A stretch of DNA of 51,828 nt from NCBI GenBank assembly GCA_019310245.1, contig JAFDER010000007.1:1-51828 (forward strand). The letters are read 5' to 3'. The notes under the pieces are model-generated. The model saw only the letters and a program-made list of their open reading frames with translations. It did no database searches and had not been told where the DNA came from. Position numbers and translations under genes: made by a program. This document shows, piece after piece, positions 17,542-51,823 of the stretch (within the stretch, counting starts at the first letter, position 1; every line of letters starts with the position of its first letter). The stretch is from Deltaproteobacteria bacterium. Lineage in GTDB: Bacteria; Myxococcota_A; Polyangia; DRWM01.

Positions 17542-17906
17542 GGGAGGCGAGTGGTCCTGTAAGCCGGGTTCTGTCGAGTGCGATCATTCATCTGGGACGG
17601 ACGTTGCCGTCCGCCTCTTGCGACCTACCCGGGGACGTTGAGCGGGCCGCCCGGTCCCCTGCTTGGTCTTGCTCCGGACGGGGTTTGCCGTGCCCCCGAC
17701 GTCACCGCCGGGGCGGTGGGCTCTTACCCCACCGTTTCACCCTTGCTCCGATCCAGAGAATCGGGGCGGTTTATTTTCTGTGGCACTTTCCGCCGGTCAC
17801 CCGGCGTCCGCGTTACGGACCGTCCTGCCCTCTGGAGCCCGGACTTTCCTCCGATCCGCCCTCCGAGGAGGACCGACCGGCGATCGCACGGACCACTCAC
17901 ACTCCC
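17542..17906 (-). ncRNA. rnpB: RNase P RNA, bacterial type A
   Basis: The reverse complement contains GGAGGAAAGTCCGGGCTCCAGAGGGCAGG (CR-I), GCAAGGGTGAAACGGTGGGGTAAGAGCCCACCGCC and AGATGAATGATCGCACTCGACAGAACCCGGCTTACAGG (CR-IV/V). The P1 stem is GAGTGGTCC (5' end, about 17898-17890) paired with GGACCACTC (3' end, about 17557-17549). Ends are approximate. Confidence 0.9.
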
Positions 17907-40238: not shown

Positions 40239-41189
40239 ATGAGGCGCGCAGGTGCGATCCTGATCATGCTCACCGTGCTCGGAGCCGCGGCTGGAGCCGG
40301 CGCCGAGGACGCGGCCGGCAGGGGCAAGCTCACCGTGGTGACCACGCCCTGGACCAAGGTCCAGGTGGACGGCGAGGAGGTGGGCAACACGCCGGTCCTG
40401 GGCCACGAGGTGGGCGCGGGCAAGCACGAGGTCACCCTCGTCAACGAGTCGTTCTCCATCTCGTTCTCGATGAGCGTGACGGTCAAGGACGGCAAGGAGA
40501 CGAAGATCTCGCACTCCTTCGAGGTCGAGACCACGAAGGGCGACGGGAGGCTGAACGTGACCACGAGCCCCTGGAGCGAGGTCCACGTGGACGGCGAGTT
40601 CCTGGGCAACACGCCCATCCAGGGCCACAAGCTCGGTCCCGGAAAGCACACGATCAAGCTGGTCAACGAGGGCCTGGGGATCTTGGAGACGCTCAGCGTG
40701 ACGATCGAGGACGGGATGGACACTACCATCTCCAAGCAGCTGGCCTCCACGCCGAAGACCGGCACGCTGAGCGTCACGGCCCATCCGTGGGCGAAGGTGT
40801 TCGTCGGCGGCGTGGAGCTCGGCAACACGCCCATCGTCAAGCACAGGCTCGAGCCCGGCAAGCACAAGGTCAAGCTCGTCAACGACGCGCTCGGCGTCAC
40901 GAAGACCTTCACCGTCAAGATCACGAAGGGCCAGGACACCAAGCTCGTCAAGAACCTCAACAAGAAGGGCGTCAAGGGCCCCCAGGGCACGCTGAGCGTC
41001 ACCACCACGCCCTGGACCACCGTGTACGTTGACGGCAAGAAGGTGGGGAACAGCCCGCTCATCAAGCACAAGCTCAAGGCCGGCAAGCACACTGTCAAGC
41101 TCGTCAACAAGGATCTCGAGATCCAGAAGGTCTTCAAGGTCACGATCAAGAAGGGCGAGGACACGCAGATCGTCAAGAACCTCCTCTAG
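40239..41189 (+). CDS. Secreted protein with four PEGA domains
   Basis: Signal peptide, then four repeats of the form G-x-L-x-V-x-T-x-P-W-(x)-V-x-V-D-G-x-x-(L/V)-G-N-T-P-...-G-K-H-x-V-K-L-V-N. Confidence 0.8.
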   Translation: MRRAGAILIMLTVLGAAAGAGAEDAAGRGKLTVVTTPWTKVQVDGEEVGNTPVLGHEVGAGKHEVTLVNESFSISFSMSVTVKDGKETKISHSFEVETTKGDGRLNVTTSPWSEVHVDGEFLGNTPIQGHKLGPGKHTIKLVNEGLGILETLSVTIEDGMDTTISKQLASTPKTGTLSVTAHPWAKVFVGGVELGNTPIVKHRLEPGKHKVKLVNDALGVTKTFTVKITKGQDTKLVKNLNKKGVKGPQGTLSVTTTPWTTVYVDGKKVGNSPLIKHKLKAGKHTVKLVNKDLEIQKVFKVTIKKGEDTQIVKNLL

Positions 41190-41239
41190 TCTCGCCCTGA
41201 CCCTTGTCGTACAATGGATCTCCCTCCAGGGAGCATGAG

Positions 41240-43060
41240 ATGAAGACCGTCTTCATAGGCGGGGGCCACGGCTGCAAGGCCGTGCTGGAGCTTGTCTTCC
41301 AGCGCAGGCTCGCCGTGCTCAGCCCCGAGATCATCGGGGTCGTGGATCCGGATCCCGAGGCGCCGGGCATGGTGCTCGCGCGCGAGCACGATCTGCCGAC
41401 CTACTCGAGCGTGCGGGAGGCCCTCGCGCTTCCCGGGCTCAAGCTCGTCATCGAGGTGACAGGCATCGACGAGGTCAGGGAGGAGATCGTGCGCCTCGTC
41501 CCGGACCGCGTGCGCGTCATGGACCACGACATGGCGCGCGTGTTCTGGGATCTCGACGAGATGGCCAAGGACCTGCGGGAGGAGCTCAATCGCAAGACCG
41601 TGCTCGAGGCCGTGATCCGGGAGGACCGGCGGAGGCTGCAGGAGCTTCTCGACAGCCTGCCCGACGCGGTGATGGTCCTTGACAACGAGGGGCGCATCGA
41701 GCGCGTCAACCGCAAGTTCGAGGAGGTCACCGAGCTGCCCTGGCCCGAGGTGCGCGGCCTGTTCTGCCGGGACATGGCCCGGGGCAGGGACATCGACTGC
41801 GGTGCCGAGGACTGCCCCCGCAGGCGCGTGCTCGAGACGGGCAGGGCCCTGACCGTGGTCCAGCAGCACTCCTGCATCCGCGCTGCCTGCACCAGCGGCG
41901 ACTGCTACTACCAGATCACCGCCACGCCTGTCCTGAAGGACCGGGTCGTGATCACCTCGCGGGAGGTCACCGAGCAGATCCGCCTCGCCCTCGAGACCGA
42001 GGAACTGGCGAGGCGGGCCCGCCAGATCCTCACCGCCGTGCACGGCATCATCACCATCTCCGATCTCGACGGGCGCTACCAGTTCGCGAATCCCAGCGCC
42101 CAGCGCTTCTTCGGCATTTCCGCTGACGCCTTCATCGGCAAATCGACCACCGAGATCCTCCCGCCCGACGTCGCCGTGCTCTTCGAGGATAACGACCGGG
42201 CGCTCCTCGAGAAGGGGAGTCGCATGACGAGCAAGGAGACGTTCCACCTGGGAGGACACGAGAGCGTGCTCATCACGGAGAGGATCCTGCTCAGGGACTA
42301 CAAGGAGGAGCTGGTCGGGATCTGCCGCGTCTCGCGCAACGTCACCGAGTCGATGCAGCTGCAGGAGGAGATCGTCGAGTCGGAGAAGCACGCGGCCGTG
42401 GGAAAGCTCGCGGCCGGCGTGGCCCACGAGCTCAACAACCCCCTCACGGGAATCCTCACCTTCTCCGAGTCGCTGCTCGACGACACGCCTGAGGACTCGC
42501 CGGTGCGCGAGGACCTCGAGGTCATCGTGCGCGAGACGTTCAGGTGCCGCCAGATCGTGCGCGACCTGCTCGACTTCTCGCGTCAGGCGAGGTCGAATCC
42601 CCAGGTGCTGTCCATGGTGCCCGTCGTCAAGAAGGCCGTCCAGCTCGTCAACAAGCAGGCCGCCTTCCAGGACATCGACTTCGTTCTCGAGCTCGATGAC
42701 GATGCGAGCGTGCGGGCGGACTTCAACCAGCTCCAGCAGGTGATCCTCAATCTCGTCATCAACGCCCGCGACGCGATGGACGGCAGGGGGATGCTCACCG
42801 TCCGCGCGAGGAACGACAGGGATAGGCGCCGGGTGGTGGTCGACGTCTCGGACGAGGGCTGCGGCATCGCGCCGGAGAACATCGACAAGATCTTCGAGCC
42901 TTTCTACTCCACCAAGGGCCAGCGGGGCAACGGCCTCGGTCTGGCCGCGGTGCGTTCGATCATGGAGCAGAACAAGGGCGCCATCGCCGTGCAGAGCACC
43001 CCGGGCGAGGGCTCGATCTTCACCATCTCCCTGCCCGCCGTCAGCTCCACCTCCTCCTGA
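41240..43060 (+). CDS. Cytoplasmic sensor histidine kinase: Rossmann-like N-domain, PAS domains (one Cys-rich), HisKA, HATPase_c
   Basis: MKTVFIGGGHGCKAVLELV...IIGVVDPDPEAPG (Gfo/Idh/MocA-like). Cys-rich PAS FCRD...CGAEDCPRRR...HSCIRAACTSGDCYY. H-box AGVAHELNNPLTGI. N, D, G boxes NLVINARDAM, DEGCGI, GNGLGL. No response regulator is adjacent. Confidence 0.85.
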   Translation: MKTVFIGGGHGCKAVLELVFQRRLAVLSPEIIGVVDPDPEAPGMVLAREHDLPTYSSVREALALPGLKLVIEVTGIDEVREEIVRLVPDRVRVMDHDMARVFWDLDEMAKDLREELNRKTVLEAVIREDRRRLQELLDSLPDAVMVLDNEGRIERVNRKFEEVTELPWPEVRGLFCRDMARGRDIDCGAEDCPRRRVLETGRALTVVQQHSCIRAACTSGDCYYQITATPVLKDRVVITSREVTEQIRLALETEELARRARQILTAVHGIITISDLDGRYQFANPSAQRFFGISADAFIGKSTTEILPPDVAVLFEDNDRALLEKGSRMTSKETFHLGGHESVLITERILLRDYKEELVGICRVSRNVTESMQLQEEIVESEKHAAVGKLAAGVAHELNNPLTGILTFSESLLDDTPEDSPVREDLEVIVRETFRCRQIVRDLLDFSRQARSNPQVLSMVPVVKKAVQLVNKQAAFQDIDFVLELDDDASVRADFNQLQQVILNLVINARDAMDGRGMLTVRARNDRDRRRVVVDVSDEGCGIAPENIDKIFEPFYSTKGQRGNGLGLAAVRSIMEQNKGAIAVQSTPGEGSIFTISLPAVSSTSS

Positions 43061-43162
43061 TCCCGCGCGCTCCTGCGCACCTTGCCCGTTCGAGGGCGAA
43101 ACACTGCCCCCACGGTACCAGCCTCTGAATGTTCGGTGGAAGCGATGCGTTCGATCGTCGCT

Positions 43163-44590
43163 CTAGAGATCCCAGCCCTTGTCGATGTCGTCCTTCGGCT
43201 CCTCGTCCCAGCCCTCGTCCTTCTTGTCCTTGATGGCCTTTTCCTCGGCGCGCAGGGCGGCCACTTCCTCGGGCACTGCACTGGGTGTCTTGCGAGACGG
43301 GTCGCTTCTCGGAATGGGCCGGGTCTCCGCCAGGAACCTGTCCCTCTCCTTCTTGAGGATGGACTTGCTGGTCGGCGGGTCCGACGGCCTGTTGAGGTCG
43401 TCGGTCAGGTAGTTGACCTCAACGGCGGAAGGAGGCGACGGCACGTTGACGTGATCCAGGGGAGGGGAGGTCGACGACCTGCGCCTGCGGGCCCGCGCCA
43501 GCGGACCCTCGCTGTCGTTGCCGCTCACGATGCGGTAGCCGGTCAGCGAGTCCCGGACCTGTTCGGGCTGCGAATTCCTCAGCCTCGGGGGAGGCTGCGT
43601 GGGCGGGCGTGAGACCTGGTGGCCAACCGCGCGCGCCGCGAGGGGTCCGAGCACGCGGCTCATGTGCTGTGCGCTCTCGAACCGCATCGAGGGGCTCTTG
43701 GACAGCGCCTGGTTGATCACCGCCACGAGGTCGACGGGAAGCTCGGGAAGGTGATCGCGAGGGTCGGGCGGCGGCTTCGTGATGATGTCCACCATCAGGG
43801 TCGCGTAGCTCGTCGAGCGGAAGGGCAGCCTTCCGGTCGTCATCTCGTAGAGGATGATCCCGACCGAGTACAGGTCGGCTCGGTGGTCGACGTCGAGCCT
43901 CCCCTCGGCCTGCTCGGGCGAGACGTAGTAGGGGGTCCCGTAGACCTTGCCTGCCTCGGTCAGTCGGCTCGTCTGGTCCATCTGGGCCGTGGACAGCCGG
44001 GAGATGCCGAAGTCGAGCAGCTTGACGATCTCCTCGCCGCCGGACTGCAGCGCAAGGAAAATGTTCTCCGGCTTGAGGTCGCGGTGGATGATGCCCTCGG
44101 AGTGCACCGCGTGCAGGCCGTCGAGCACCTGCATGGTGATGTCCACGGCGCGGTCGACCGAGAGCCTCTCCTCGCGCTCGAGCAGCTCGCCCAGGCTGTC
44201 GCCCTCGAGGTGCTCCATGACGATGTACGGCACGTCCTCGGACGTCTCGCCCATGTCCAGCACCGCCACGATGTTCTTGTGGCCCAGCGCGGCGGCGATC
44301 CTGGCCTCGTTGATGAACCTCTGCCTGACCTCGGACGAGCCGCACGTCTCGGGCGCCAGGAACTTGATGGCGACGCGCCGGTCGATCAGCTTGTGGCGGC
44401 CCTCGTAGACGACCCCCATCCCGCCCGAACCCACGACGCCCTCGACCCTGTACTTGCCGTCCAGGAGGCTGCCGCCCATCTTGTGGATCGAGGCGAGTTT
44501 CTGACCCGTTTTCGGGCAGACATCGATGTCCTCGTCATGGTCGAGGTGGCAGTGCGGACAGATGAAGGTTCTCTTCTTCAGATAGCGCAA
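43163..44590 (-). CDS. Ser/Thr protein kinase (Hanks type) with N-terminal zinc-ribbon-like motif and disordered acidic tail
   Basis: GSGGMGVVYEG, VAIKFL, HRDLKPENIFL, DFGIS, GTPYYVSPEQ. N-terminus CPHC-x12-CPKTG. TTG start at 44590; an internal ATG (MGGSLL) is an alternative. Confidence 0.9.
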   Translation of the reverse strand: MRYLKKRTFICPHCHLDHDEDIDVCPKTGQKLASIHKMGGSLLDGKYRVEGVVGSGGMGVVYEGRHKLIDRRVAIKFLAPETCGSSEVRQRFINEARIAAALGHKNIVAVLDMGETSEDVPYIVMEHLEGDSLGELLEREERLSVDRAVDITMQVLDGLHAVHSEGIIHRDLKPENIFLALQSGGEEIVKLLDFGISRLSTAQMDQTSRLTEAGKVYGTPYYVSPEQAEGRLDVDHRADLYSVGIILYEMTTGRLPFRSTSYATLMVDIITKPPPDPRDHLPELPVDLVAVINQALSKSPSMRFESAQHMSRVLGPLAARAVGHQVSRPPTQPPPRLRNSQPEQVRDSLTGYRIVSGNDSEGPLARARRRRSSTSPPLDHVNVPSPPSAVEVNYLTDDLNRPSDPPTSKSILKKERDRFLAETRPIPRSDPSRKTPSAVPEEVAALRAEEKAIKDKKDEGWDEEPKDDIDKGWDL

Positions 44591-44866: not shown

Positions 44867-44895
44867 TTGACACCCACCCGAGCCGAACGCATACT
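44867..44895 (+). promoter_or_regulatory. Sigma-70-like promoter candidate TTGACA-17 nt-CATACT just before the redox operon
   Basis: TTGACA at 44867-44872 and CATACT at 44890-44895. The ATG at 44906 has no SD, so the transcript would be leaderless or nearly so. Confidence 0.3.
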
Positions 44896-44905
44896 CACCG
44901 GGCCC

Positions 44906-45697
44906 ATGCAGGTCAGGGTGACAGTGGATGGCAGGGGGGTACGCGCCGAGAGGCACCAGATGCTCCTCGGGCTTCTCCACAGCCTCGGGGTGCGTCTGCC
45001 CACGCTCTGCCACCTCGACGGCCTGAGCCCGTACGGCGCCTGCCGGCTGTGCCTGGTCGAGGTCGCGCGCGGCGGGGGCACGCGCGTCACCACCGCGTGC
45101 AACCTGCCCGTCGAGGATGGAGCCGTCTACACGACGTCGTCGCCGAGGCTGTCCCGCCTCAGGAGGCTCGCGGCCGAGCTCCACCTGGCCCGCTGCCCCG
45201 ACGAGCCGGAGGTCCGCCGCGTCGCCCGGGCTCTCGGGGTCCGCAGGGCGAGGCTGAGGCCCGTGGGCGACACCTGCATCCTGTGCGGCCTGTGCGAGCG
45301 CGTGTGCCGCGAGGTGGTGGGTGCGAGCGCCCTCGGGTTCGAGGGACGGGGAACGTCCCGCGCGCTCGCCAGCGCGTACGGCGAGGTGCCCGAGGAGTGC
45401 ATCGGCTGCGGCGCCTGCTCGTTCGTCTGCCCCACGGGGACGATCCGGATGCAGGAGGCCGCCGTCGAGTCCCTGCGGCGGCTGCCCGGGTCAGAGCGGC
45501 CCTGCCGCCACGCGCTGACGGGGATGATGCCGGCGGCGTTGTGCTCGATGAGCTACCAGTGCGCGTCGTGCGAGGTCGACCAGCGTCTCAGGGAGATCGT
45601 CTCCACGCATCCCGTGCTCGCGCTGGGCAGGGGTCCCGAGGCCCGCCGTCTGGCCGAGTACCTGGTCACGACACGCCGGGGAGCGGGGCGGCCATGA
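44906..45697 (+). CDS. Iron-sulfur protein: NuoG/HndD-N-terminal-like [2Fe-2S] plus two [4Fe-4S] motifs
   Basis: MQVRVTVDG...LPTLCHLDGLSPYGACRLCLVEV...TACNLPVEDG. CILCGLCERVC and CIGCGACSFVCP. Start taken at M14 of ORF 44867..45697. The stop overlaps the next ATG (ATGA). Confidence 0.75.
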   Translation: MQVRVTVDGRGVRAERHQMLLGLLHSLGVRLPTLCHLDGLSPYGACRLCLVEVARGGGTRVTTACNLPVEDGAVYTTSSPRLSRLRRLAAELHLARCPDEPEVRRVARALGVRRARLRPVGDTCILCGLCERVCREVVGASALGFEGRGTSRALASAYGEVPEECIGCGACSFVCPTGTIRMQEAAVESLRRLPGSERPCRHALTGMMPAALCSMSYQCASCEVDQRLREIVSTHPVLALGRGPEARRLAEYLVTTRRGAGRP

Positions 45698-48576
45698 GCC
45701 ACGATCCGAGGCCGTCCGGCCGGGCGCCGTGCAGGCATGCCTGTCCCGTGGATCAGAACGCGAAGGAGTACGTCGCGCTCATCGCGGAGGGCCGGTTCCG
45801 GGACTCGCTCGAGGTCATCCGCAGGACCAACCCCTTTGCCTCGGTGTGCGGACGCGTGTGCACGCATCCTTGCGAGCGCGAGTGCGTCCGCGCGGGCTCG
45901 GGCGGCGCCGTGGCCGTGCGCTGGCTCAAGCGCTTCGTGGCCGACCGGGCCGCCGACGAGGGATCCCTGCCACCTGCCGGACCCTTCGATCCGTGGAGGA
46001 CGCAGCGGGTGGCCGTCGTGGGAGCGGGCCCGGCGGGCCTGACCGCAGCGCTCGATCTCGCCTCGCTGGGCTACGGCACGACCGTGCTCGAGGCCCGCGA
46101 CGAGCCGGGCGGGATGATGCGCTGGGGCATTCCCGAGTTCAGGCTTCCTCGCCACCTCGTGCGCCTCGAGACGCGCGCCGTCGAGGAGGCGGGCGTGAGG
46201 ATCGTGACGGGATTCAGGCTGGGACGCGACGGCGATCTCGACGATCTGCTCGCCGGGGACCATGCGGCCGTGCTCATCGCGGCCGGCGCCGGACGGCAGT
46301 CCGGGCTTCCCATCGAGGGCGACTCGGGCGAGGGCGTGGCCGACACCCTCGCGTTCATGGAGACAGGCACCGTCGCGGGCCGGCCACTGGCCCGCATGCG
46401 CGTCGTCGTCGTCGGCGCCACCCGCGAGGGGTTCGACGCGGCGCGTCTCGCCGCGCGGCAGGGCGCACGATCCGTCGTGCTCGTCACGCACCTCGAGCAC
46501 GATACGTGGGACGGCTCGGTCGTCGAGGCGCTCGAGGCCGACGGGGTCAGGATCATGGACGGGATCAGGCCCGTCGCGGTGCGCAGGAAGGCGGGCCGGA
46601 TCGAGGCTCTCGAGGTCCGGCGGGTCTCGGGCCGCGGCAGGAACGTGACGATTCCCGCCTCGATCGTGCTGCCTGCGGCCGACCGCCACGTGGACCCGGG
46701 ACTGCTCGACGCGTGTCGCGGCGTGCAGAGGGGGCCGTGGGGGATCATCGCCGATCCCCGCTCCCTCGCCACCTCGCGCTCCGGCGTGTTCGCAGCCGGC
46801 GATGCGGTGACCGGTCCGAGGAACGTCATCGAGGCGGTGGCGGCGGGACACAGAGCGGCCTCGGCCATCCACGAGAGCCTCTCCGGCGAGACGTGGCAGG
46901 CGGCCGGCAGGCCATGGCCGCCGTCCGCCGGACCCGAGGCCTGGGAGATCACCGCCCCCTCGCACCCGGCGCTCGAGCGGTCCGCGCCTCTCTCGGGCCC
47001 GGCGATGGCCATGCGCGAGGCGCGCCGCTGCCTGAGGTGCGGGCAGTGCCTGGACTGCGAGACGTGCCACCCGGACTGCCCCACGCGCGTCGCCATGCTC
47101 GCCCTGCCGGGCTCGCGCACCCCGTCATGGACGGATCCTCTGATCAAGATCGACGAGGAGGTTGTCGTCGAGGTCCTGGGCGGCGGCCCGATCCGTCTCG
47201 GAGACGATCCGCCGCGCGAGCCCGTGGTTCCCGTACCGGTGGTGGACGCCTCCGCATGCCTCGGTTGCGGTCGCTGCGCCGATGCCTGCCCCTACGACGT
47301 GGTGCAGATGACGCTCGGCGCGGACGGGGCGGGGATCGCCCGCATCCACGCGCATGCCTGCCGGGCGTGCGGCTCGTGCGCCGGCGCCTGCCCGGTCGAT
47401 GCCATCGACCAGCCGTACTGGAGCCACGACGCGCTGGACCGTGCCGTTGACGGCAGGAGCGGGGACGTGGTGCTCGCCTGCAGGTGGGGCGAGGATGCGC
47501 CGGCATCGGCCGTGCCGCTTCCGTGCGCGGGACGCGCGGGCGAGCGCGTCCTGCTGCGCGCCGCCGCCGCCGGCGCCTCGTCCGTCGACCTGCGCGACTG
47601 CGGCGACGCGTGCCGGTACCGCACCGGACGCGCGTGCGGCCAGGCCGCGCTTGCGAGGGTCGAGACCGTCCTGGAGCGCCTCGGTCTCGAGGCCGGCAGG
47701 CTGTCCGGCAACGACGTTGCGCCCATGGAGTCCGGCGACGGTCACGGCCGGTCCGTTGCCGGACCATTCGCAAGGCCCATGCTCGACGTCGAGAGGCTGC
47801 TCGCGCGCTCGGAGATCACGCCAGTGCGCAGACCCCTCGTGCACGACCTTCGCGTTGCCGACAGGGCAGATGTCCTGCTCCACTCCGGCTGCCTGCCCTT
47901 CATCGACGCCCTGGCCGGCAACGACGTGGATCCATGCCTTGCTCATGGACTGAGGTCCGCGGTCCGGCTCCTCAACCGATCCGGGATCGTTCCCGCCCTG
48001 ACCGACGACGAGCGATCCTGCGGCCTCGATCTGCGCGGCGCCGGGGACGGGGAGGCGTACCTGAGGCTCGCCGCGCTCGGTGTCGAGGCGATCGAGCGCA
48101 CGGGCGCCCGCGTGGTGGTGACCACATGCGGCGAGGCCGTCCATGCGCTCGCCGCACAGGTGAAGGCCGCCCGTGGATCTTCCCCGCTCGAGGTCGTTCA
48201 CCTCGCCTTGTTCCTCGACGAGATGCAGCCGGAGCCGCCGCGCGCGCCGGCCGGGGCGCCGGCCGTGGCCGTGCTCGATGATCCCGCGGATCCGGCCGTG
48301 CGAAGGGCGGCCTCGAGGTTGCTGCGATCGGCGGGCCTGAGGCCCGTCAGGTGGAAGCCTCCTCGCCACCCGGTGCGTGAGGCTCACGGCCAGGGGACCC
48401 GGGAGGACGCGCTCGCAGTGCTCGAGGCGGCGCGCTCGAGCGGCGCCTCCATCGTCGCGTGCACGTCCCTGAGGCGGAGTCTCGGTGCGATGTACGTGCT
48501 GAGACAGGGAGGCTGGGACGGCTTCGGCGTGCGCGTGATGGATCTCGCCTCGCTCCTCGCAGGCGGTGGACCATGA
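45694..48576 (+). CDS. Multidomain oxidoreductase: GltD-like Fe-S/FAD/NAD(P) module, 4Fe-4S ferredoxin domain, MvhD/FlpD-like domain and HdrB-like CCG-type domain
   Basis: CRHACPV...NPFASVCGRVCTHPCERECVR. VAVVGAGPAGLTAALDL...EARDEPGGMMRWGIPEFRLP. GVFAAGDAVTGPRNVIEAVAAGHRAA. CLGCGRCADACP and CRACGSCAGACP. VVLACRWG...LPCAGR...DLRDCGDACRY (MvhD pattern). LLHSGCLPF...VVTTCGEAVHAL (HdrB/LutA-like). Only the part from MSHDPRPSG of ORF 44605..48576 is used. Confidence 0.75.
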   Translation: MSHDPRPSGRAPCRHACPVDQNAKEYVALIAEGRFRDSLEVIRRTNPFASVCGRVCTHPCERECVRAGSGGAVAVRWLKRFVADRAADEGSLPPAGPFDPWRTQRVAVVGAGPAGLTAALDLASLGYGTTVLEARDEPGGMMRWGIPEFRLPRHLVRLETRAVEEAGVRIVTGFRLGRDGDLDDLLAGDHAAVLIAAGAGRQSGLPIEGDSGEGVADTLAFMETGTVAGRPLARMRVVVVGATREGFDAARLAARQGARSVVLVTHLEHDTWDGSVVEALEADGVRIMDGIRPVAVRRKAGRIEALEVRRVSGRGRNVTIPASIVLPAADRHVDPGLLDACRGVQRGPWGIIADPRSLATSRSGVFAAGDAVTGPRNVIEAVAAGHRAASAIHESLSGETWQAAGRPWPPSAGPEAWEITAPSHPALERSAPLSGPAMAMREARRCLRCGQCLDCETCHPDCPTRVAMLALPGSRTPSWTDPLIKIDEEVVVEVLGGGPIRLGDDPPREPVVPVPVVDASACLGCGRCADACPYDVVQMTLGADGAGIARIHAHACRACGSCAGACPVDAIDQPYWSHDALDRAVDGRSGDVVLACRWGEDAPASAVPLPCAGRAGERVLLRAAAAGASSVDLRDCGDACRYRTGRACGQAALARVETVLERLGLEAGRLSGNDVAPMESGDGHGRSVAGPFARPMLDVERLLARSEITPVRRPLVHDLRVADRADVLLHSGCLPFIDALAGNDVDPCLAHGLRSAVRLLNRSGIVPALTDDERSCGLDLRGAGDGEAYLRLAALGVEAIERTGARVVVTTCGEAVHALAAQVKAARGSSPLEVVHLALFLDEMQPEPPRAPAGAPAVAVLDDPADPAVRRAASRLLRSAGLRPVRWKPPRHPVREAHGQGTREDALAVLEAARSSGASIVACTSLRRSLGAMYVLRQGGWDGFGVRVMDLASLLAGGGP

Positions 48577-50651
48577 GAAGGATCCACGCACATCCCATCC
48601 TCGACGTGAAGCCGCGCCCGAAGGTGCGCTTCACGTTCAACGGCGAGCAGGTGGACGCGTTCGAGGGGGAGATGATCTCCTCCGCGCTCTTCGCGGGCGG
48701 CGTGCACCACTTCGGCCTCCATCCGGGCGACGGCAGCCCCCAGGGCATCTTCTGCGCCAACGGCCAGTGCTCCCAGTGCACGGTGATCGCCGACGGCCTT
48801 GCCGTGAAGTCCTGCATGACGCCCGTCAGGCAGGGCATGATCGTGCAGAGCTGCAACACCGTTCCGCAGCTCGTTGCGGACGACCGTCCCGCGGAGCTCA
48901 GGGACGCGCCCGTGGTCGAGACGGACGTACTCGTCATCGGTGGTGGTCCCGCCGGGATCAACGCCGCCATCGAGCTCGCGCGTGCCGGCATCGGCGGCAT
49001 CCTCGTGGACGACAAGCCCGGGCTGGGCGGCAAGCTCACCCTGCAGACGCACTCCTTCTTCGGTTCCATCGACGCGTGCCACGCCGGCACGCGGGGCATT
49101 GACATCGGCACCCTGCTCGCCGACGAGCTCGAGGGGATCGGCCGGTTCCAGGTCTGGACGCGCACCTCCGCCGTGGGCATCTTCCACGACCGGGCGGTCG
49201 GGCTTGTCAGGAACGGGTCCTCGTACGTGCTCGTGCGTCCCCGCGCCCTCCTCGTCGCAACCGGCGCGCGGGAGAAGGCGCTGGCCATGCCGGGAGGCGA
49301 CCTGCCCGGCGTCTACGGAGCAGGTGCGTTCCAGACGCTCGTCAACCGGGACCTCGTGCGGTCTGCCTCGCGCCTGTTCATCGTCGGCGGCGGGAACGTA
49401 GGCCTCATCGCGGGCTACCACGCTCTCCAGGCGTCCATCGACGTCGTGGGGCTGGTGGAGGCCCTCCCCGAGGTGGGAGGCTACAAGGTGCACCTCGACA
49501 AGCTGAGGCGGCTCGGCGTGCCGGTGTGGACCTCCCACTCCGTTGCGAGGATCATCGGCCGCGAGCACGTGGAGTCGGTGGTCATTTGCGAGCTGGACCG
49601 CCGCTGGAAGCCCGTCCCCGGATCCGAGAGGAGCTTCGACGTGGACACGGTCCTCGTCGCCGTGGGCCTCACCCCGATCGACGAGATCGCCCTCAAGGCG
49701 CGGCTCTATGGCATGGACGTGTGGACGGCCGGGGACGCGCACATGATCGCCGAGGCGAGCGCGGCCATCTTCAGCGGCAAGATGGCGGGCCGGGAGATCG
49801 CGCGCGCCCTTGGCGCGGACACCGACGTGCCCGCATCATGGCAGAGGACGGCCGAGGTCCTGCGATCCAGGCCCGGCCCCGTCGAGGAGATCCCCCTCGC
49901 CGAGCACGACCTGCCCGTCCATCCCGTGATCCGCTGCTTCCAGCCCATCCCGTGCAACCCCTGCACGGAGGTCTGTCCCGTGGGACGGATCACGATCCCC
50001 GCGGGCGACATCATGGACCTGCCCGTGTTTCTCGGCGAGGAGTGCCTGGGGTGCGGCCGCTGCGTGGCCGTGTGCCCCGGGCTTGCGATCAACCTGCTCG
50101 TCAGGGATGCCGATCCGCGCAGGCGCATTGCACAGATCGTCATGCCCTACGAGCTCGGTGCCGACACCATCGAGCCCGGCCAGAGGGTCGTGACGGTCGG
50201 GACCGAGGGCGAGCGCGTCGGCCGCGGCCGCGTGCTCGCCACGCGCAGGCACGAGGACCTCGACCGCCGGCTGCTCGTGATCATCGAGGTCCCCTGGAAG
50301 GACAGGCTCCGCGTCGCGGGCTTCCGCGTGCGCACGCCGCGCGAGGGACGCCACGCGCGCAGGCGGGCCGAGCCCGAGACGATCGTGTGCCGGTGCGAGC
50401 GCGTGACCCGCGAGCGCGTGGTTCAGGAGATCCGCAGGGGCGTCAGGGACATCAACCAGCTCAAGGCCACCCTGCGCTCCGGAATGGGAGCGTGCGGCGG
50501 AAAGACGTGCGGCGAGCTGATCCTCAGGATCTTCCGCGAGGAGGGCGTCGAGCCCGCCTCCGTCGAGAAGAACACCCTCAGGCCCTTCTTCGAGGAGGTG
50601 CCCCTCGGGGTCTTTGCCGGAGCCGTCGATGGCGACGGAGAGGAGGCCTAG
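48573..50651 (+). CDS. Opine/sarcosine-oxidase alpha (OoxA/HcnAB/PDH-alpha)-like Fe-S flavoprotein
   Basis: N-terminal [2Fe-2S] FTFNGEQVDAFEGE...CANGQCSQCTV...SCMTPV. VLVIGGGPAGINAAIELA and FIVGGGNVGLIAG dinucleotide folds. CNPCTEVCP and CLGCGRCVAVCP. C-terminal BFD-like CRCERVT...GACGGKTC. ATGA overlap with the upstream gene. Confidence 0.8.
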   Translation: MRRIHAHPILDVKPRPKVRFTFNGEQVDAFEGEMISSALFAGGVHHFGLHPGDGSPQGIFCANGQCSQCTVIADGLAVKSCMTPVRQGMIVQSCNTVPQLVADDRPAELRDAPVVETDVLVIGGGPAGINAAIELARAGIGGILVDDKPGLGGKLTLQTHSFFGSIDACHAGTRGIDIGTLLADELEGIGRFQVWTRTSAVGIFHDRAVGLVRNGSSYVLVRPRALLVATGAREKALAMPGGDLPGVYGAGAFQTLVNRDLVRSASRLFIVGGGNVGLIAGYHALQASIDVVGLVEALPEVGGYKVHLDKLRRLGVPVWTSHSVARIIGREHVESVVICELDRRWKPVPGSERSFDVDTVLVAVGLTPIDEIALKARLYGMDVWTAGDAHMIAEASAAIFSGKMAGREIARALGADTDVPASWQRTAEVLRSRPGPVEEIPLAEHDLPVHPVIRCFQPIPCNPCTEVCPVGRITIPAGDIMDLPVFLGEECLGCGRCVAVCPGLAINLLVRDADPRRRIAQIVMPYELGADTIEPGQRVVTVGTEGERVGRGRVLATRRHEDLDRRLLVIIEVPWKDRLRVAGFRVRTPREGRHARRRAEPETIVCRCERVTRERVVQEIRRGVRDINQLKATLRSGMGACGGKTCGELILRIFREEGVEPASVEKNTLRPFFEEVPLGVFAGAVDGDGEEA

Positions 50652-51823
50652 TGGGAGGCAGGAGCCACAGCGCGGACGTGGTCGTGATCGGCGCCGGAAG
50701 CGTCGGTGCACCGCTCGCCTACTTCCTCGCCCGCGGGGGCGCGCGCGTCACGGTTGTGGACATGCACGCCTCGCCGGGCCGGGGTCAGAACCGCGCCGCC
50801 ATCGGAGGCGTGAGGGCCACGCACTCCGATCCCGCGAAGATCCGCCTGTGCCTCGACAGCCTCGAGATCTTCTCCACCTGGCGCGAGGAGCACGGCGACG
50901 ACATCGGTTGGAAGCGCGGGGGGTACTGCTTCCCCGCGTTCCGCGACCGCGAGGAGTCCATCCTCAAGGCGCTGCTTCCCGCGCAGAAGGAGCAGGGGCT
51001 CGAGATCGACTGGGTGGAGCCGGACGAGGTCAAGAGGCTCATCCCTGGAATCGTCGAGCGGGACCTGAGGGGCGGTACGTACAGCCCGGGCGACGGTCAG
51101 GTCTCGCCACTGCGCGCCGTGACCGCCTTCTCGCGCGCCGCCGAGAGGCACGGGGCCACCTTCCGGTTCCGCGAGCGCGTGACCGGGATCACGATCCGCA
51201 GGGGCCGCATCCAGGGGATCGCAACGGATCGAGGGAAGCTCTCGGCGCCGGTCGTCGTCAACGCCGCCGGCGCCGAGGCGAGGCAGATCGGATCCCTGGC
51301 CGGCCTCGACGTGCCCGTGACGCCGGACAGCCACGAGGCCGGCATCACCGCTCCCGTGGAGCAGTTCCTTGCACCTCTCGTCGTGGACATCCGCCCCGGG
51401 GACGAGGGGAAGACCTCCAACTTCTACTTCGGCCAGAACTCCGAGGGTCAGATCATCTTCTGCTACACGCCGAGCACGCTCTTCGTGGGGACGAACGCGG
51501 AATCCACCTCCGAGTTCATGCCCGTGCTCGCGCGCCGCATGATCGCCCTCGTACCGAGGCTCAAGAACCTGCTCGTGCGCCGCGTCTGGCGCGGGCTCTA
51601 CCCCATGACCCCGGACGGGACCATCATCCTCGACGCGGTGCGAGAGGTCGATGGACACTTCCTGGCGGTCGGGATGTGCGGGCAGGGCTTCATGCTCGGT
51701 CCCGGTGTGGGCCGCTGCATGGCTTCGTTCATCCTGGACGGCACACCGACCTTGCCTCCCGGGGTGTTCGGGTCCCTGTCCTACTACCGCGATTTCGAGT
51801 CCAAGACCGAGGCCCTGAAGTAA
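50651..51823 (+). CDS. FAD-dependent amine/amino-acid oxidoreductase (DAO family; SoxB/OoxB/HcnC/PDH-beta-like)
   Basis: ADVVVIGAGSVGAPLAYFLARGGARVTVVD, internal DAO blocks, C-terminal GMCGQGFMLGPGVGRCMA. The GTG start overlaps the upstream TAG (TAGTG). TAA at 51821-51823. Confidence 0.8.
   Translation: MGGRSHSADVVVIGAGSVGAPLAYFLARGGARVTVVDMHASPGRGQNRAAIGGVRATHSDPAKIRLCLDSLEIFSTWREEHGDDIGWKRGGYCFPAFRDREESILKALLPAQKEQGLEIDWVEPDEVKRLIPGIVERDLRGGTYSPGDGQVSPLRAVTAFSRAAERHGATFRFRERVTGITIRRGRIQGIATDRGKLSAPVVVNAAGAEARQIGSLAGLDVPVTPDSHEAGITAPVEQFLAPLVVDIRPGDEGKTSNFYFGQNSEGQIIFCYTPSTLFVGTNAESTSEFMPVLARRMIALVPRLKNLLVRRVWRGLYPMTPDGTIILDAVREVDGHFLAVGMCGQGFMLGPGVGRCMASFILDGTPTLPPGVFGSLSYYRDFESKTEALK

Follow-up and report, generated by a model that had tools for sequence, protein, structure and literature searches.

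Archaeal dye-linked L-proline dehydrogenases, represented by PDH1 (alpha4beta4; 1Y56) and by the alpha-beta-gamma-delta enzyme of T. profundus (pdhA/F/X/B), are the closest characterised relatives of the products of g3 and g4, the last two genes of a four-gene locus in a stretch of DNA from a Deltaproteobacteria bacterium (the window, that is, the whole 51,828 nucleotides analysed). Their beta subunit is a DAO-family FAD enzyme, like g4, their alpha subunit combines a gamma-like N-terminal [2Fe-2S] site, dinucleotide folds and Cys-cluster domains, like g3, and the alpha and beta genes are adjacent, as are g3 and g4. The window differs from them in that the alpha-, gamma- and delta-type parts form a single 692-aa protein, and in that two additional Fe-S/flavin subunits, g1 and g2, precede the pair. 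We know of no established physiological acceptor for the archaeal enzymes, which to our knowledge have been assayed with artificial dyes only. Their alpha subunit has an N-terminal gamma-type [2Fe-2S] motif of the form Cys-X4-Cys-X2-Cys-X11-12-Cys, and bacterial opine and D-hydroxyproline dehydrogenases and HCN synthase have a common design of 2 FAD, FMN and [2Fe-2S] (PMC4575208). Subunits like g1 or g2 are not mentioned for the archaeal enzymes in the family descriptions of PMC4575208 and PMC4364671.

The two additional subunits recall other systems. Nfn-type enzymes (NfnSL/NfnAB, and the Bfu-type NfnABC and StnABC; 9BOV, 9N5U, 8OH5) contain a GltD-like FAD/[4Fe-4S] module homologous to g2, but the window operon lacks the small FNR-like subunit NfnA/S, with its [2Fe-2S] and NAD(H) site, and the conserved Bfu core of BfuB (NuoF-like, FMN) and BfuC (NuoE-like), no NuoE/F homologue being found anywhere in the 51.8-kb window; in addition, g2 has lost the NADPH motif and carries appended MvhD and HdrB-like domains, and the third partner is an amino-acid dehydrogenase instead of NAD+. 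With HdrABC-MvhAGD the locus shares an MvhD-type [2Fe-2S] adaptor and an HdrB-fold domain in g2, a ferredoxin dicluster in front of MvhD, as in HdrA2, and the general logic of a donor module docked onto a flavoprotein core; it has neither HdrA proper nor a hydrogenase, and the high-potential substrate would be pyrroline-5-carboxylate (P5C)/proline, not CoM-S-S-CoB. GlpABC likewise combines a DAO-family flavoprotein with BFD-type [2Fe-2S] and a CCG-domain Fe-S subunit. GlpC and EtfD pass electrons to quinone at the membrane and keep their CCG cysteines, whereas the window domain is decayed, soluble and fused to GltD/MvhD modules. As an analogy of mechanism only, the confurcating lactate dehydrogenase (LDH)/EtfAB complex of Acetobacterium woodii, from unrelated families (Etf and GlcD-type LDH), solves what would be the same thermodynamic problem: its substrate is too positive for NAD+, and the reaction is driven by co-oxidation of reduced ferredoxin.

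Organisation of the four-gene operon

Four co-oriented ORFs occupy positions 44906-51823 (Table 1), and each junction is an overlap that can be read directly: ATGA at 45694 between g1 and g2, ATGA at 48573 between g2 and g3, and TAGTG at 50649 between g3 and g4, the last with an SD-like sequence, GGAGAGGAGG, just 5' of the g4 GTG. The operon described in the initial annotation is borne out, including a g4 start at the g3/g4 overlap, which is placed at 50651; a frame opened at 50649 runs into stop codons. In these frames the GC3 of the four ORFs is 0.88-0.92. No transmembrane-grade hydrophobic segments were found in any of the four proteins, which are predicted to be soluble.

Both hexamers of the promoter-like element in front of g1, and their spacing, are conserved in two relatives (L001 and L002), while the remaining intergenic DNA is not. 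Since the element stops 10 nt 5' of the g1 ATG, the leader would be very short or absent. The g4 stop codon lies 5 nt from the end of the window; in relatives an unrelated gene follows about 300 nt downstream of g4, so that the operon consists of four genes. The same genes, in the same order and with the same flanking genes, were found again in relatives with 48-80% g2 identity, and g2-g3-g4 also in archaeal MAGs: the arrangement is not due to chance. Pfam agrees with the domains initially assigned to all four proteins, with the exception of the CCG of g2, which falls below cut-off. No characterised complex or curated family equal to the operon was found, and every NCBIfam model stays below its cut-off. 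The labels in present use, among them "FAD-dependent oxidoreductase" and "glutamate synthase beta subunit-like", are uninformative for this operon.

Table 1. Features of the g1-g4 locus, in window coordinates.
Feature	Position	Strand	Evidence
Sigma-70-type promoter-like element, TTGACA-17 nt-CATACT	44867..44895	+	Consensus scan 10/12, 0.1 expected by chance
g1, 263-aa HoxU/NuoG-N-terminal-like Fe-S protein	44906..45697	+	Pfam Fer2_4 2.3e-14 and Fer4 families (4Fe-4S dicluster)
g1 C-terminal four-Cys motif CRHxLxGxxPxAxCxxSYxCxxC(E/D)xDQ (C200, C213, C219, C222)	45503..45571	+	Alignment
g2, 960-aa fusion protein, start overlapping g1 stop	45694..48576	+	ORF, Pfam; full-length homologues with 30-80% identity
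g2 GltD/NfnB-type module: Fer4_20 (aa 10-89) and FAD-binding Pyr_redox_2 (aa 105-385)	45721..46848	+	Pfam
g2 CxxCxxCxxCxxCxxxCP motif (C446-C462), then 2x[4Fe-4S] ferredoxin domain (aa 515-572)	47029..47409	+	Pfam Fer4_7 5.1e-9
g2 MvhD/FlpD-type [2Fe-2S] domain (C596, C611, C636, C640)	47479..47730	+	Pfam FlpD 29.8-33.8 bits, cut-off 22.3
g2 C-terminal HdrB-like double-CCG domain, decayed	47764..48573	+	CCG alignment, tblastn, profile and structure comparison
g3, 692-aa SoxA/PDH-alpha-like alpha-type subunit	48573..50651	+	Pfam Fer2_4, Pyr_redox_2, Fer4, BFD
g4, 390-aa DAO-family FAD dehydrogenase (beta subunit), GTG start overlapping g3 TAG	50651..51823	+	Pfam DAO 1.1e-65

The g3-g4 core and its candidate substrate

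At its N-terminus g3 carries a gamma-type [2Fe-2S] site (C61-x4-C66-x2-C69-x11-C81) that is invariant in alignments A2 and A5 and has the spacing of the L-proline/opine dehydrogenase/HCN synthase family. It is followed by an FAD motif and by an invariant second Rossmann motif, GGGNVG...VE (two GxGxxG motifs in total). The second Rossmann fold binds NAD+ in SoxA alpha and ATP in PDH1 alpha, and in g3 it could be a structural nucleotide site. The protein also contains two [4Fe-4S] sites (C455-C468 and C491-C501) and a BFD-type [2Fe-2S] site (C606, C608, C641, C646; Pfam BFD 5.5e-9), whose spacing, C606-x-C608-x32-C641-x4-C646, is longer than the published Cys-X-Cys-X15-20-Cys-X4-Cys of alpha subunits. 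Mean column identity between bacteria and archaea is 66% in alignment A2. Foldseek places the g3 model next to SoxA alpha (2e-25) and PDH1 alpha (1y56_A, 8.7e-25), while NCBIfam HdrA and HdrA2 match short parts only, far under their cut-offs; Pfam and Foldseek agree on the Fe-S flavoprotein of OoxA/HcnAB/PDH-alpha type, with 4Fe-4S and BFD clusters, anticipated for this gene.

The DAO-family dehydrogenase expected in g4 was confirmed by Pfam. Its top solved relative is the beta subunit of P. horikoshii L-proline dehydrogenase (1y56_B, 1.6e-54), matched over the full length (aa 8-379), with dimethylglycine and sarcosine enzymes at 1e-27 or weaker. The match of g4 to 1y56_B and of g3 to SoxA and PDH1 alpha, together with the gamma-type motif and a BFD-type site of longer spacing, indicate a PDH-like core, and these comparisons make g4 the probable site of L-proline/P5C chemistry.

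Gene context was surveyed in 83 related loci, within 8 kb of the g3-g4 pair. P5C dehydrogenase was found in 10-11 of them (one with 748 bits on TIGR01236, cut-off 613.6), ProC (P5C reductase), passing the TIGR00112 cut-off, in 5, members of the ornithine cyclodeaminase family in 4 and a class-III aminotransferase in 3. These neighbours point to proline/P5C as the likely substrate of the core, and so narrow towards it the choice among sarcosine, opines, glycine and proline left by the initial annotation. The assignment is transferred from orthologues, since no proline-pathway gene (P5C dehydrogenase or ProC) is present in the window or its close relatives, which also lack NuoEF genes; in addition, ProC adjoins the core in Bacillota, which has no simple explanation whichever way the reaction runs.

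It seems quite unlikely that g4 acts instead on another secondary amine or amino acid (sarcosine, glycine, D-proline/hydroxyproline, an opine or pipecolate), with the same electron-transfer logic: 1y56_B is by far its best solved relative, orthologous cores adjoin genes of the four types listed above in about 22 of the 83 loci, and there are no sarcosine, glycine-cleavage, folate or opine genes among the annotated conserved neighbour clusters. Such a substrate would be in keeping with the top NCBIfam matches of g4, ThiO glycine oxidase (118 bits) and SoxB (97 bits), all under cut-offs, with a g3 fold closest to sarcosine oxidase alpha, and with a window devoid of proline-pathway neighbours. 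The alpha-beta-gamma family, moreover, switches substrates by subunit exchange, and proline is not a substrate for the subfamily of BjOpnDH2, a near relative of archaeal L-ProDH (PMC4575208).

The partner subunits g1 and g2

The NuoG-N-terminal-like 2Fe-2S/4Fe-4S protein proposed for g1 was recovered by Pfam; its top NCBIfam match is HoxU (110 bits, below the model cut-off). A [2Fe-2S] site (C35, C46, C49, C65) and two CxxCxxCxxxC(P) motifs for 2x[4Fe-4S] (C124-C134 and C165-C175) are present in g1, and the His-ligated NuoG-type cluster motif is absent. The protein is HoxU/HydA-N-like and may correspond to the HydA/NuoG-type Fe-S domain ([2Fe-2S] plus [4Fe-4S] clusters) with which BfuA begins in Bfu-type enzymes; it has no BfuBC partner in the window. 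Its C-terminal four-Cys motif, kept in all eight aligned g1-type proteins and absent from type-B fusion proteins, could bind a further metal or Fe-S cluster.

As for the GltD-type NAD(P)H module assigned to g2, the GltD type stands (Pfam Fer4_20 1.1e-20, Pyr_redox_2 9.5e-19). Residues 6-403 match 9bov_A (1.6e-65), 8oh5_C, 9n5u_A and NfnB 4ylf_B (1.6e-65 to 1e-50), and the nearest among solved structures (9bov, 8oh5, 9n5u) serve for NADPH entry in the bifurcating enzymes NfnABC and StnABC. The FAD motif GAGPAG is intact. Compared with the large subunit of NfnAB/NfnSL, which has 2x[4Fe-4S], FAD and an NADPH-binding Rossmann motif (GGGNxAxD ... YRR), g2 has the Fer4_20 and FAD domains, but its second Rossmann motif reads GATREG(FD)...THLE, versus GGGNAALD...YRRT in NADPH-binding relatives (15 homologues compared); the canonical motif is kept in the archaeal, L022 and L024 homologues. 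With this degenerate motif, the module has probably lost NAD(P)H binding in the window clade. The Fe-S cysteines of the Fer4_20, Cys-rich, ferredoxin and MvhD parts are all invariant (alignment A1), from which the MvhD domain and every ferredoxin-type cluster are predicted to be intact. The MvhD assignment held, above the Pfam threshold and with its four Cys invariant, and NCBIfam HdrA2 matches in g2 only the stretch of ferredoxin and MvhD.

The HdrB/CCG end of g2 was right as to fold. The canonical CCG protein of relatives matches 47848-48561 in tblastn (E 9e-19), the C-terminal profile finds 9ojn (1.3e-17) and HdrB (2e-4 to 5e-4) in the PDB, and the AF2 model of the domain (pLDDT 85) retrieves with Foldseek EtfD first, LutA second and also HdrB (E about 3e-5), at a TM of about 0.6. 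The clusters are another matter: Pfam CCG gives 16.1 bits, under the 20.6 cut-off, and against canonical syntenic CCG proteins CCG1 keeps 3/5 Cys (GC733...SC776G...TC812GEA) and CCG2 1/5 (DPAD...(CCG deleted)...AC923TSL), while HdrB has two CCG motifs (CX31-39CCX35-36CXXC) whose ten Cys hold two non-cubane [4Fe-4S] clusters. With four of these ten left, a heterodisulfide-reductase-type site is unlikely in the window protein and no disulfide chemistry is expected in g2. The GltD/ferredoxin/MvhD/HdrB-like fusion was correctly described in its domains, but the NADPH motif and six of the ten CCG Cys are lost, which removes two of the three features by which a bifurcating partner is usually recognised.

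A modular family and the proposed complex

The g3-g4 core is 50-60% identical across bacteria and archaea, with at least 589 genomic matches; among the matches listed, its sediment and subsurface lineages include Thermoplasmata, Anaerolineae, Planctomycetota, Myxococcota, Syntrophomonadaceae and Aminicenantes, and the window g4 is 47-65% identical to g4 of 80 genome loci. Its two closest relatives reach 79-90%. Judged by sequence identity, the partner domains have diverged far more rapidly than the core (38-59% for g2 domains and 77-79% for g3/g4, window versus L001). An MvhD-containing partner lies directly upstream of the core in 31 of about 73 assessable loci (some 40%), from many phyla; upstream partners are of GltD type in 15 loci and consist of NuoF/NuoEF-type Bfu-like subunits, some of them NuoE-NuoF fusions, in 18. 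NuoE/NuoF-type BfuC/B-like subunits are encoded next to g1 in L013, L015 and L021, and seven related loci have an intact Fer4+2xCCG protein (CCG 4.9e-28). Seven loci from Bacillota/Syntrophomonadaceae encode g3 as an in-frame fusion with a HoxU-Fd-MvhD-HdrB-like module (about 1,315 aa), and separate g3+FlpD fusions occur in P0162 and P0221; in many loci the pair has no partner module. The modular family to which the window operon belongs is widespread and has other variants, with NuoEF (Bfu-type) modules or intact CCG, and the recurrence of MvhD, GltD, NuoEF and CCG partners beside the core makes coupling modules a recurrent design. The arrangement, initially regarded as unusual, is not rare. 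No description of a proline dehydrogenase combined with an Hdr/Nfn-like module was found in the literature searched.

The overlapping junctions, conserved promoter, synteny and in-frame fusions support one complex, and the idea of a co-translated assembly put forward from the overlaps and the parts list holds. Two independent co-transcribed enzymes, an Nfn-like/ferredoxin-linked oxidoreductase (g1 and g2) and a PDH-type dehydrogenase (g3 and g4), are highly improbable: even if the g3-g4 pair stands alone in many genomes and GltD-Fd-MvhD proteins, about 750-780 aa long, abound as stand-alone forms, the fusions to g3, the start/stop codon overlap at the g2/g3 junction and the position of the partner immediately upstream of g3 in so many phyla argue against it, as does g2 itself, which on its own has no recognisable substrate site in the window clade.

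We tentatively propose, with somewhat less than even confidence, that g1-g4 form a soluble proline:acceptor oxidoreductase complex that would couple proline/P5C to low-potential carriers, possibly by bifurcation or confurcation, this last element being least certain for the decayed window variant. In such a single multi-flavin, multi-Fe-S complex, the g3-g4 core would be the bacterial counterpart of the archaeal heteromeric L-proline dehydrogenase, the FAD of g4 interconverting L-proline and P5C. By analogy with the characterised family, in which FMN lies at the alpha/beta interface, electrons would pass through an interface flavin and the Fe-S clusters and FAD of g3. The MvhD [2Fe-2S] domain of g2, together with its HdrB-like scaffold, would dock the core to g1 and g2. 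These two subunits would provide a chain of about 8-9 Fe-S clusters and one FAD, built from Nfn/Bfu-type (GltD) and Hdr/Mvh-type parts, between the core and a low-potential carrier outside the complex, ferredoxin being the likeliest. The proline/P5C couple has a midpoint of about -120 mV and is too electropositive for direct NAD+ reduction. The complex might serve proline oxidation in an organism without quinone-linked PutA, coupling it to the oxidation of reduced ferredoxin with reduction of NAD(P)+ (confurcation), and in the reverse direction it would be a bifurcating P5C reductase. In the Myxococcota-type lineage the invariant g3 Rossmann motif would be the sole remaining candidate pyridine-nucleotide site; with its own NADPH site and CCG clusters lost, and no NuoEF nearby, the partner may act purely as an electron wire.

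Alternatively, the complex could be a non-bifurcating dehydrogenase in which g3 and g4 oxidise proline or a related amine, with g1 and g2 as only a relic Fe-S/flavin wire, free of energetic coupling, that leads downhill to an acceptor of higher potential such as a quinone reductase, a cytochrome, a disulfide carrier or oxygen-linked systems. We regard this as doubtful, if still a serious contender. The losses in g2 and the absence of NuoEF or a Bfu core nearby would agree with it, as would the weaker constraint on the partner domains than on the core and the loci in which the pair has no partner. The HdrB fold, besides, also occurs in non-bifurcating quinone-linked enzymes (EtfD and LutA, the top Foldseek matches), and the canonical CCG protein of the relatives matches GlpC and LdhH. 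However, some 8-9 clusters and a flavin, with all ligands conserved, would be costly for simple downhill transfer, the operon has no membrane anchor or quinone-site subunit, and in other lineages the same MvhD and HdrB-like adaptor joins the core to NuoEF or to a GltD with intact NADPH motif, that is, to low-potential chemistry. Returning to the coupled complex, it is a speculative extension, one that would rather fail than hold, that the core and its MvhD-linked partners constitute a new flavin-based bifurcating/confurcating class with proline/P5C as high-potential couple. Its partners would be GltD- or NuoEF/Bfu-type, with or without intact CCG; that the partly decayed window variant would still couple, via the g3 flavin, is equally speculative.

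Proline is abundant in detrital protein, and the handling of its first oxidation step by strict anaerobes is poorly documented; a core repeatedly wired to MvhD, GltD, NuoEF and CCG modules is a testable candidate for an energy-coupled proline dehydrogenase. Without bifurcation, the operon would still be a clearly defined member of the PDH/opine dehydrogenase family that has gone unannotated. If the proposal is true, a ferredoxin- and NAD(P)-linked proline dehydrogenase would account for proline oxidation without quinone-linked PutA in many uncultured anaerobic peptide degraders, and the few known classes of bifurcating enzymes would gain one that acts on an amino acid. Members of the family also differ in the modules that were gained, were lost or have decayed, a natural series in which to study the evolution of such complexes, with the NADPH site intact or lost, the CCG clusters intact or decayed, the Bfu core present or absent, and the partner separate or fused.

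Layout and expression of the operon

The four genes form a single transcription and translation unit. Their junctions overlap, as the initial annotation had proposed and as can be read directly in the sequence (ATGA at 45694 and 48573, TAGTG at 50649). A start of g4 at position 50649 was discarded, given the stop codons in that translation, and g4 begins at the GTG at 50651. GC3 in these frames is 0.88-0.92, and no membrane-grade hydrophobic segment was detected in g1, g2, g3 or g4. Shine-Dalgarno-like purine-rich stretches lie upstream of g2 and g4, the clearest being that of g4 (GGAGAGGAGG); g2 to g4 have such sequences internally, in contrast to g1, which is probably almost leaderless. The window ends 5 nt past the stop codon of g4, and in related loci an unrelated polysaccharide deacetylase gene follows about 300 nt downstream, which sets the operon at four genes. 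Coordinates are collected in the table.

Coordinates of the operon, its neighbors and related features (positions in the window unless a locus of another genome is named)
Feature	Position	Strand	Remarks
g1	44906-45697	same as g2-g4	263 aa, reading frame
g2	45694-48576	same as g1, g3, g4	960 aa, reading frame
g3	48573-50651	same as g1, g2, g4	692 aa, reading frame
g4	50651-51823	same as g1-g3	390 aa, GTG start
Promoter-like element	44867-44895; with the gap to the g1 start, 44867-44906		TTGACA-17-CATACT
Four-Cys motif of g1	45503-45571		aa 200-222
Match to canonical CCG protein	47848-48561		in g2
PEGA-repeat protein	40239-41189		upstream neighbor of operon
PAS histidine kinase	41204-43060		upstream neighbor of operon
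Ser/Thr kinase	43163-44590	minus	divergent from operon; N-terminal CxxC...C zinc-ribbon-like start
The three preceding genes together	40239-44590; L001 4583-8978
RNase P RNA	17544-17899	minus	RF00010, full length
Antisense ORFs over g2-g4	45553-47070, 47125-48591, 48384-49742, 50648-51658	minus	336-505 aa
Peptidase_M24 gene	L004 5127-6233; L005 1321-2427		368 aa, candidate Xaa-Pro dipeptidase
In-frame partner-g3 fusions	L016, L029, L036, L044, L049, L054, L066		e.g. L036:2706-6662

A consensus scan revealed a promoter-like element ending 10 nt 5' of the g1 ATG, and two related loci (L001 and L002) keep both hexamers and their spacing upstream of g1, while the remaining intergenic sequence has diverged. 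Transcription thus probably starts from a promoter dedicated to the operon, and the short distance to the ATG suggests a first gene that is leaderless or almost so. Since a sigma-54 regulator is conserved downstream in relatives, a sigma-54 promoter was also considered and rejected: the intergenic region contains no such site and matches across the window are at chance level. An Rfam scan gave no leader RNA or riboswitch for the operon, the only family at gathering score in the window being the class A bacterial RNase P RNA located elsewhere (299 bits, model positions 1-367), and no terminator was found upstream of the operon.

The genes for the PEGA-repeat protein and the two kinases flank the operon in relatives too. 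The long antisense ORFs opposite g2-g4 were dismissed as artefacts; many such antisense and out-of-frame ORFs are by-products of a G+C content of 68-74%. Several apparently conserved minus-strand ORF clusters across loci were likewise antisense shadows of g3 and g4, which look conserved because they lie opposite conserved genes in high-G+C DNA.

A proline dehydrogenase-like core

The Pfam domains of the four proteins agreed with the parts list of the initial annotation, and no NCBIfam model reached its cut-off for any of them. g1 combines a Fer2_4 [2Fe-2S] domain with a two-cluster ferredoxin domain, is nearest to HoxU and to the N-terminus of NuoG or HydA, with scores under every curated cut-off, and lacks the His-ligated cluster motif. 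Outside Pfam coverage, its C-terminus carries a four-Cys motif, CR(H/Y)xLxGxxPxAxCxxSYxCxxC(E/D)xDQ, also kept in loci L001, L002, L006, L013, L015, L021 and L058 and missing from the type-B fusion proteins described below, which may constitute an extra Fe-S or zinc site. g3 consists of an N-terminal [2Fe-2S] domain, a two-Rossmann Pyr_redox_2 body, a 2x[4Fe-4S] domain and a BFD-type [2Fe-2S] domain, and g4 is a DAO-family flavoprotein. In total, roughly 13-14 Fe-S sites and three FAD sites are predicted for this soluble protein set, and the ligands of the relay clusters are all conserved.

The system is built around a conserved pair, g3 and g4. Among 8,000 candidates scored, 7,350 g3 homologs had E values below 1e-20, and identity is 50-60% from Myxococcota to Thermoplasmata. 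At least 589 genomic matches encode a relative in a scan with one genome per species, from which 80 loci, all from MAGs, were retained; the nearest among the matches listed is a Myxococcota MAG (77% identity). In nearly every locus g4 directly follows g3. Among solved structures, g4 comes closest to the Pyrococcus horikoshii dye-linked L-proline dehydrogenase, beta subunit (PDH; 1y56_B, 1.6e-54, full length), with dimethylglycine, glycine and sarcosine enzymes scoring far below. The nearest matches of the g3 model are the alpha subunits of sarcosine oxidase and PDH1. Two [2Fe-2S] motif types are described for the family of PDH, opine dehydrogenase and HCN synthase (PMC4575208; PMC4364671), and g3 carries both types, although the Cys spacing of the second (C606-x-C608-x32-C641-x4-C646) is longer than published. 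The core belongs to this family: of three defining features examined, the DAO-type beta subunit and the N-terminal [2Fe-2S] motif agree, and for the third, the ADP-binding and second [2Fe-2S] motifs of the alpha subunit, two GxGxxG motifs and a BFD domain are present with the deviating spacing.

Gene neighborhoods point to proline/pyrroline-5-carboxylate (P5C) as the substrate. ORFs of 83 non-redundant loci were clustered and representatives of the recurrent clusters annotated, within 8 kb of the core. P5C dehydrogenase was found in 10-11 of these loci (one scoring 748 bits on TIGR01236, cut-off 613.6), P5C reductase (ProC) in five, over its cut-off, the ornithine cyclodeaminase family in four and a class-III aminotransferase in three; it is these neighbors that indicate proline/P5C. 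Two caveats apply: the window has none of these neighbors, a sequence search of its whole length giving no P5C dehydrogenase, ProC or NuoEF, and one ProDH-like subfamily does not use proline (PMC4575208). A conserved 401-aa "unknown" neighbor in Thermoplasmata loci turned out to be an ORF antisense to the P5C dehydrogenase gene and was rejected. In two archaeal loci (L004 and L005) the Peptidase_M24 gene lies about 2 kb upstream of g2-g3-g4, and fumarase, LarA and a FAD_binding_4 oxidase are encoded downstream.

Partner modules and the partial decay of g2

g2, for which an exact-sequence lookup returned no identical sequence on record, is composed of a GltD/NfnB-type Fer4_20 and FAD domain, an invariant six-Cys motif, a 2x[4Fe-4S] ferredoxin domain, an MvhD/FlpD domain and a 270-aa C-terminal domain. 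The MvhD assignment made initially was borne out, with a score over the Pfam threshold and four invariant Cys. The proposed HdrB/CCG end stood as far as homology to CCG proteins is concerned, while its set of cluster ligands did not. As its Pfam CCG score is below threshold (16.1 bits, cut-off 20.6), profile, tblastn and fold comparisons were needed. In relatives, a canonical Fer4+2xCCG protein (locus L013; CCG 4.9e-28) occupies the position of this domain and matches the corresponding part of g2 by tblastn (E 9e-19). A profile of the domain against PDB retrieved EtfD (9ojn, 1.3e-17) and HdrB (2e-4 to 5e-4), and its AlphaFold model (pLDDT 85) matched EtfD, LutA and HdrB at TM around 0.6. In the alignment, however, the canonical GC...CCG...CPEC and DPC...CCG...CPKC have become GC...SCG...CGEA and DPA...(deleted)...CTSL, leaving three of five ligands in the first motif and one of five in the second, and the loss is greater still in archaeal homologs. 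Judged from these ligands, an HdrB-type non-cubane cluster pair and disulfide chemistry are unlikely in g2.

The GltD-type NAD(P)H module was likewise found only in part: the module and its FAD motif are there, but the NADPH motif, canonical in archaeal and some bacterial homologs (GGGNAALDxAR...YRRT), is degenerate in the window clade (GATREGFD...THLE), as tends to be the case in loci bearing g1. g2 of this lineage thus appears to be a flavin/Fe-S relay that lacks its own substrate site. A genuine glutamate synthase small subunit was rejected, with the GltB-type partner absent and the NADPH motif lost.

Three arrangements were found upstream of the core. In type A, that of the window, a GltD-Fd-MvhD protein is accompanied by an HdrB-like domain either fused and decayed or separate and intact (seven loci), and by g1 in some loci only. 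In type B, a NuoF-type or NuoE-NuoF fusion gene precedes a HoxU-like-Fd-MvhD protein, whose C-terminal 267 aa are a decayed HdrB-like domain (hhalign 91%, E 9.5e-7). Type C is the g3-g4 pair alone. The fullest versions of the system (type-A loci L013, L015 and L021, plus L022 on the opposite strand) have NuoE/NuoF-type genes, which in the first three lie in front of g1, together with g1, GltD-Fd-MvhD, the intact Fer4+2xCCG protein (best NCBIfam matches TfrB, LdhH and GlpC, all under cut-offs), g3 and g4. Counting type-A cases, a NuoF-type or NuoE-NuoF fusion gene is upstream in 18 loci, and an MvhD-containing partner is directly upstream of the core in 31 of about 73 assessable loci.

In seven Bacillota/Syntrophomonadaceae loci (MAGs) the whole type-B partner and g3 form one continuous reading frame of about 1,315 aa with HoxU-like, Fd, MvhD, HdrB-like and g3-homologous parts, preceded by a NuoE-NuoF fusion gene; ProC follows g4 in five of the seven and a class-III aminotransferase is upstream in three. 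Proteins P0162 and P0221 are further, separate g3+FlpD fusions. These fusions are direct evidence for a physical association of the MvhD-type partner with the core, and partners so recurrent and partly fused indicate that the MvhD and HdrB-like pair behaves as a conserved adaptor between a PDH-like core and interchangeable redox modules.

Proposed electron flow and relation to known complexes

In the proposed mechanism, g4 would interconvert proline and P5C, and electrons would pass via g3 through the MvhD cluster to the flavin and clusters of g2 and to g1, finally reaching ferredoxin or another external carrier. Since NAD+/NADH lies about 200 mV below the proline/P5C couple, an anaerobe needs either an acceptor of high potential or an added driving force. 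The Nfn-, Bfu- and Hdr-type origin of the partner modules suggests that this force comes from reduced ferredoxin being oxidized alongside (confurcation); run backwards, the complex would act as a bifurcating P5C reductase. Our tentative reading is that the complex is linked to proline and coupled to carriers of low potential; genuine bifurcation within it seems rather unlikely. The case is weaker for the variant in the window, where the NADPH site and CCG clusters have been lost and NuoEF is not encoded nearby; the sole nucleotide site left would be the invariant GGGNVG...VE fold of g3, whose equivalent in related structures binds a nucleotide that plays no redox role. The leading alternative, an electron wire running downhill with no energetic coupling, would accommodate these losses; it too seems rather unlikely. 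The operon borrows one module each from Nfn, Hdr and Bfu enzymes and is none of the three. It differs from Nfn in its degenerate NADPH motif and absent small subunit, from Hdr in having no HdrA and incomplete CCG ligands, and from Bfu enzymes in that the window has no BfuB/C. The nearest relatives of the GltD module of g2 are the NADPH-entry subunits of NfnABC and StnABC, whose bifurcation is structurally proven.

Full-text literature searches and a survey of the Bfu family yielded nothing on a PDH-type enzyme connected to MvhD/Hdr/Bfu-type modules, and the third substrates in that survey (hydrogen peroxide, pyruvate, CO, aldehydes, aryl-CoA esters, NADP+, F420, formate and quinones) do not include proline. 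Such a combination, of which the window lineage carries a version with a partly decayed partner, is widespread and uncharacterized, and has real relevance for the bioenergetics of anaerobes.
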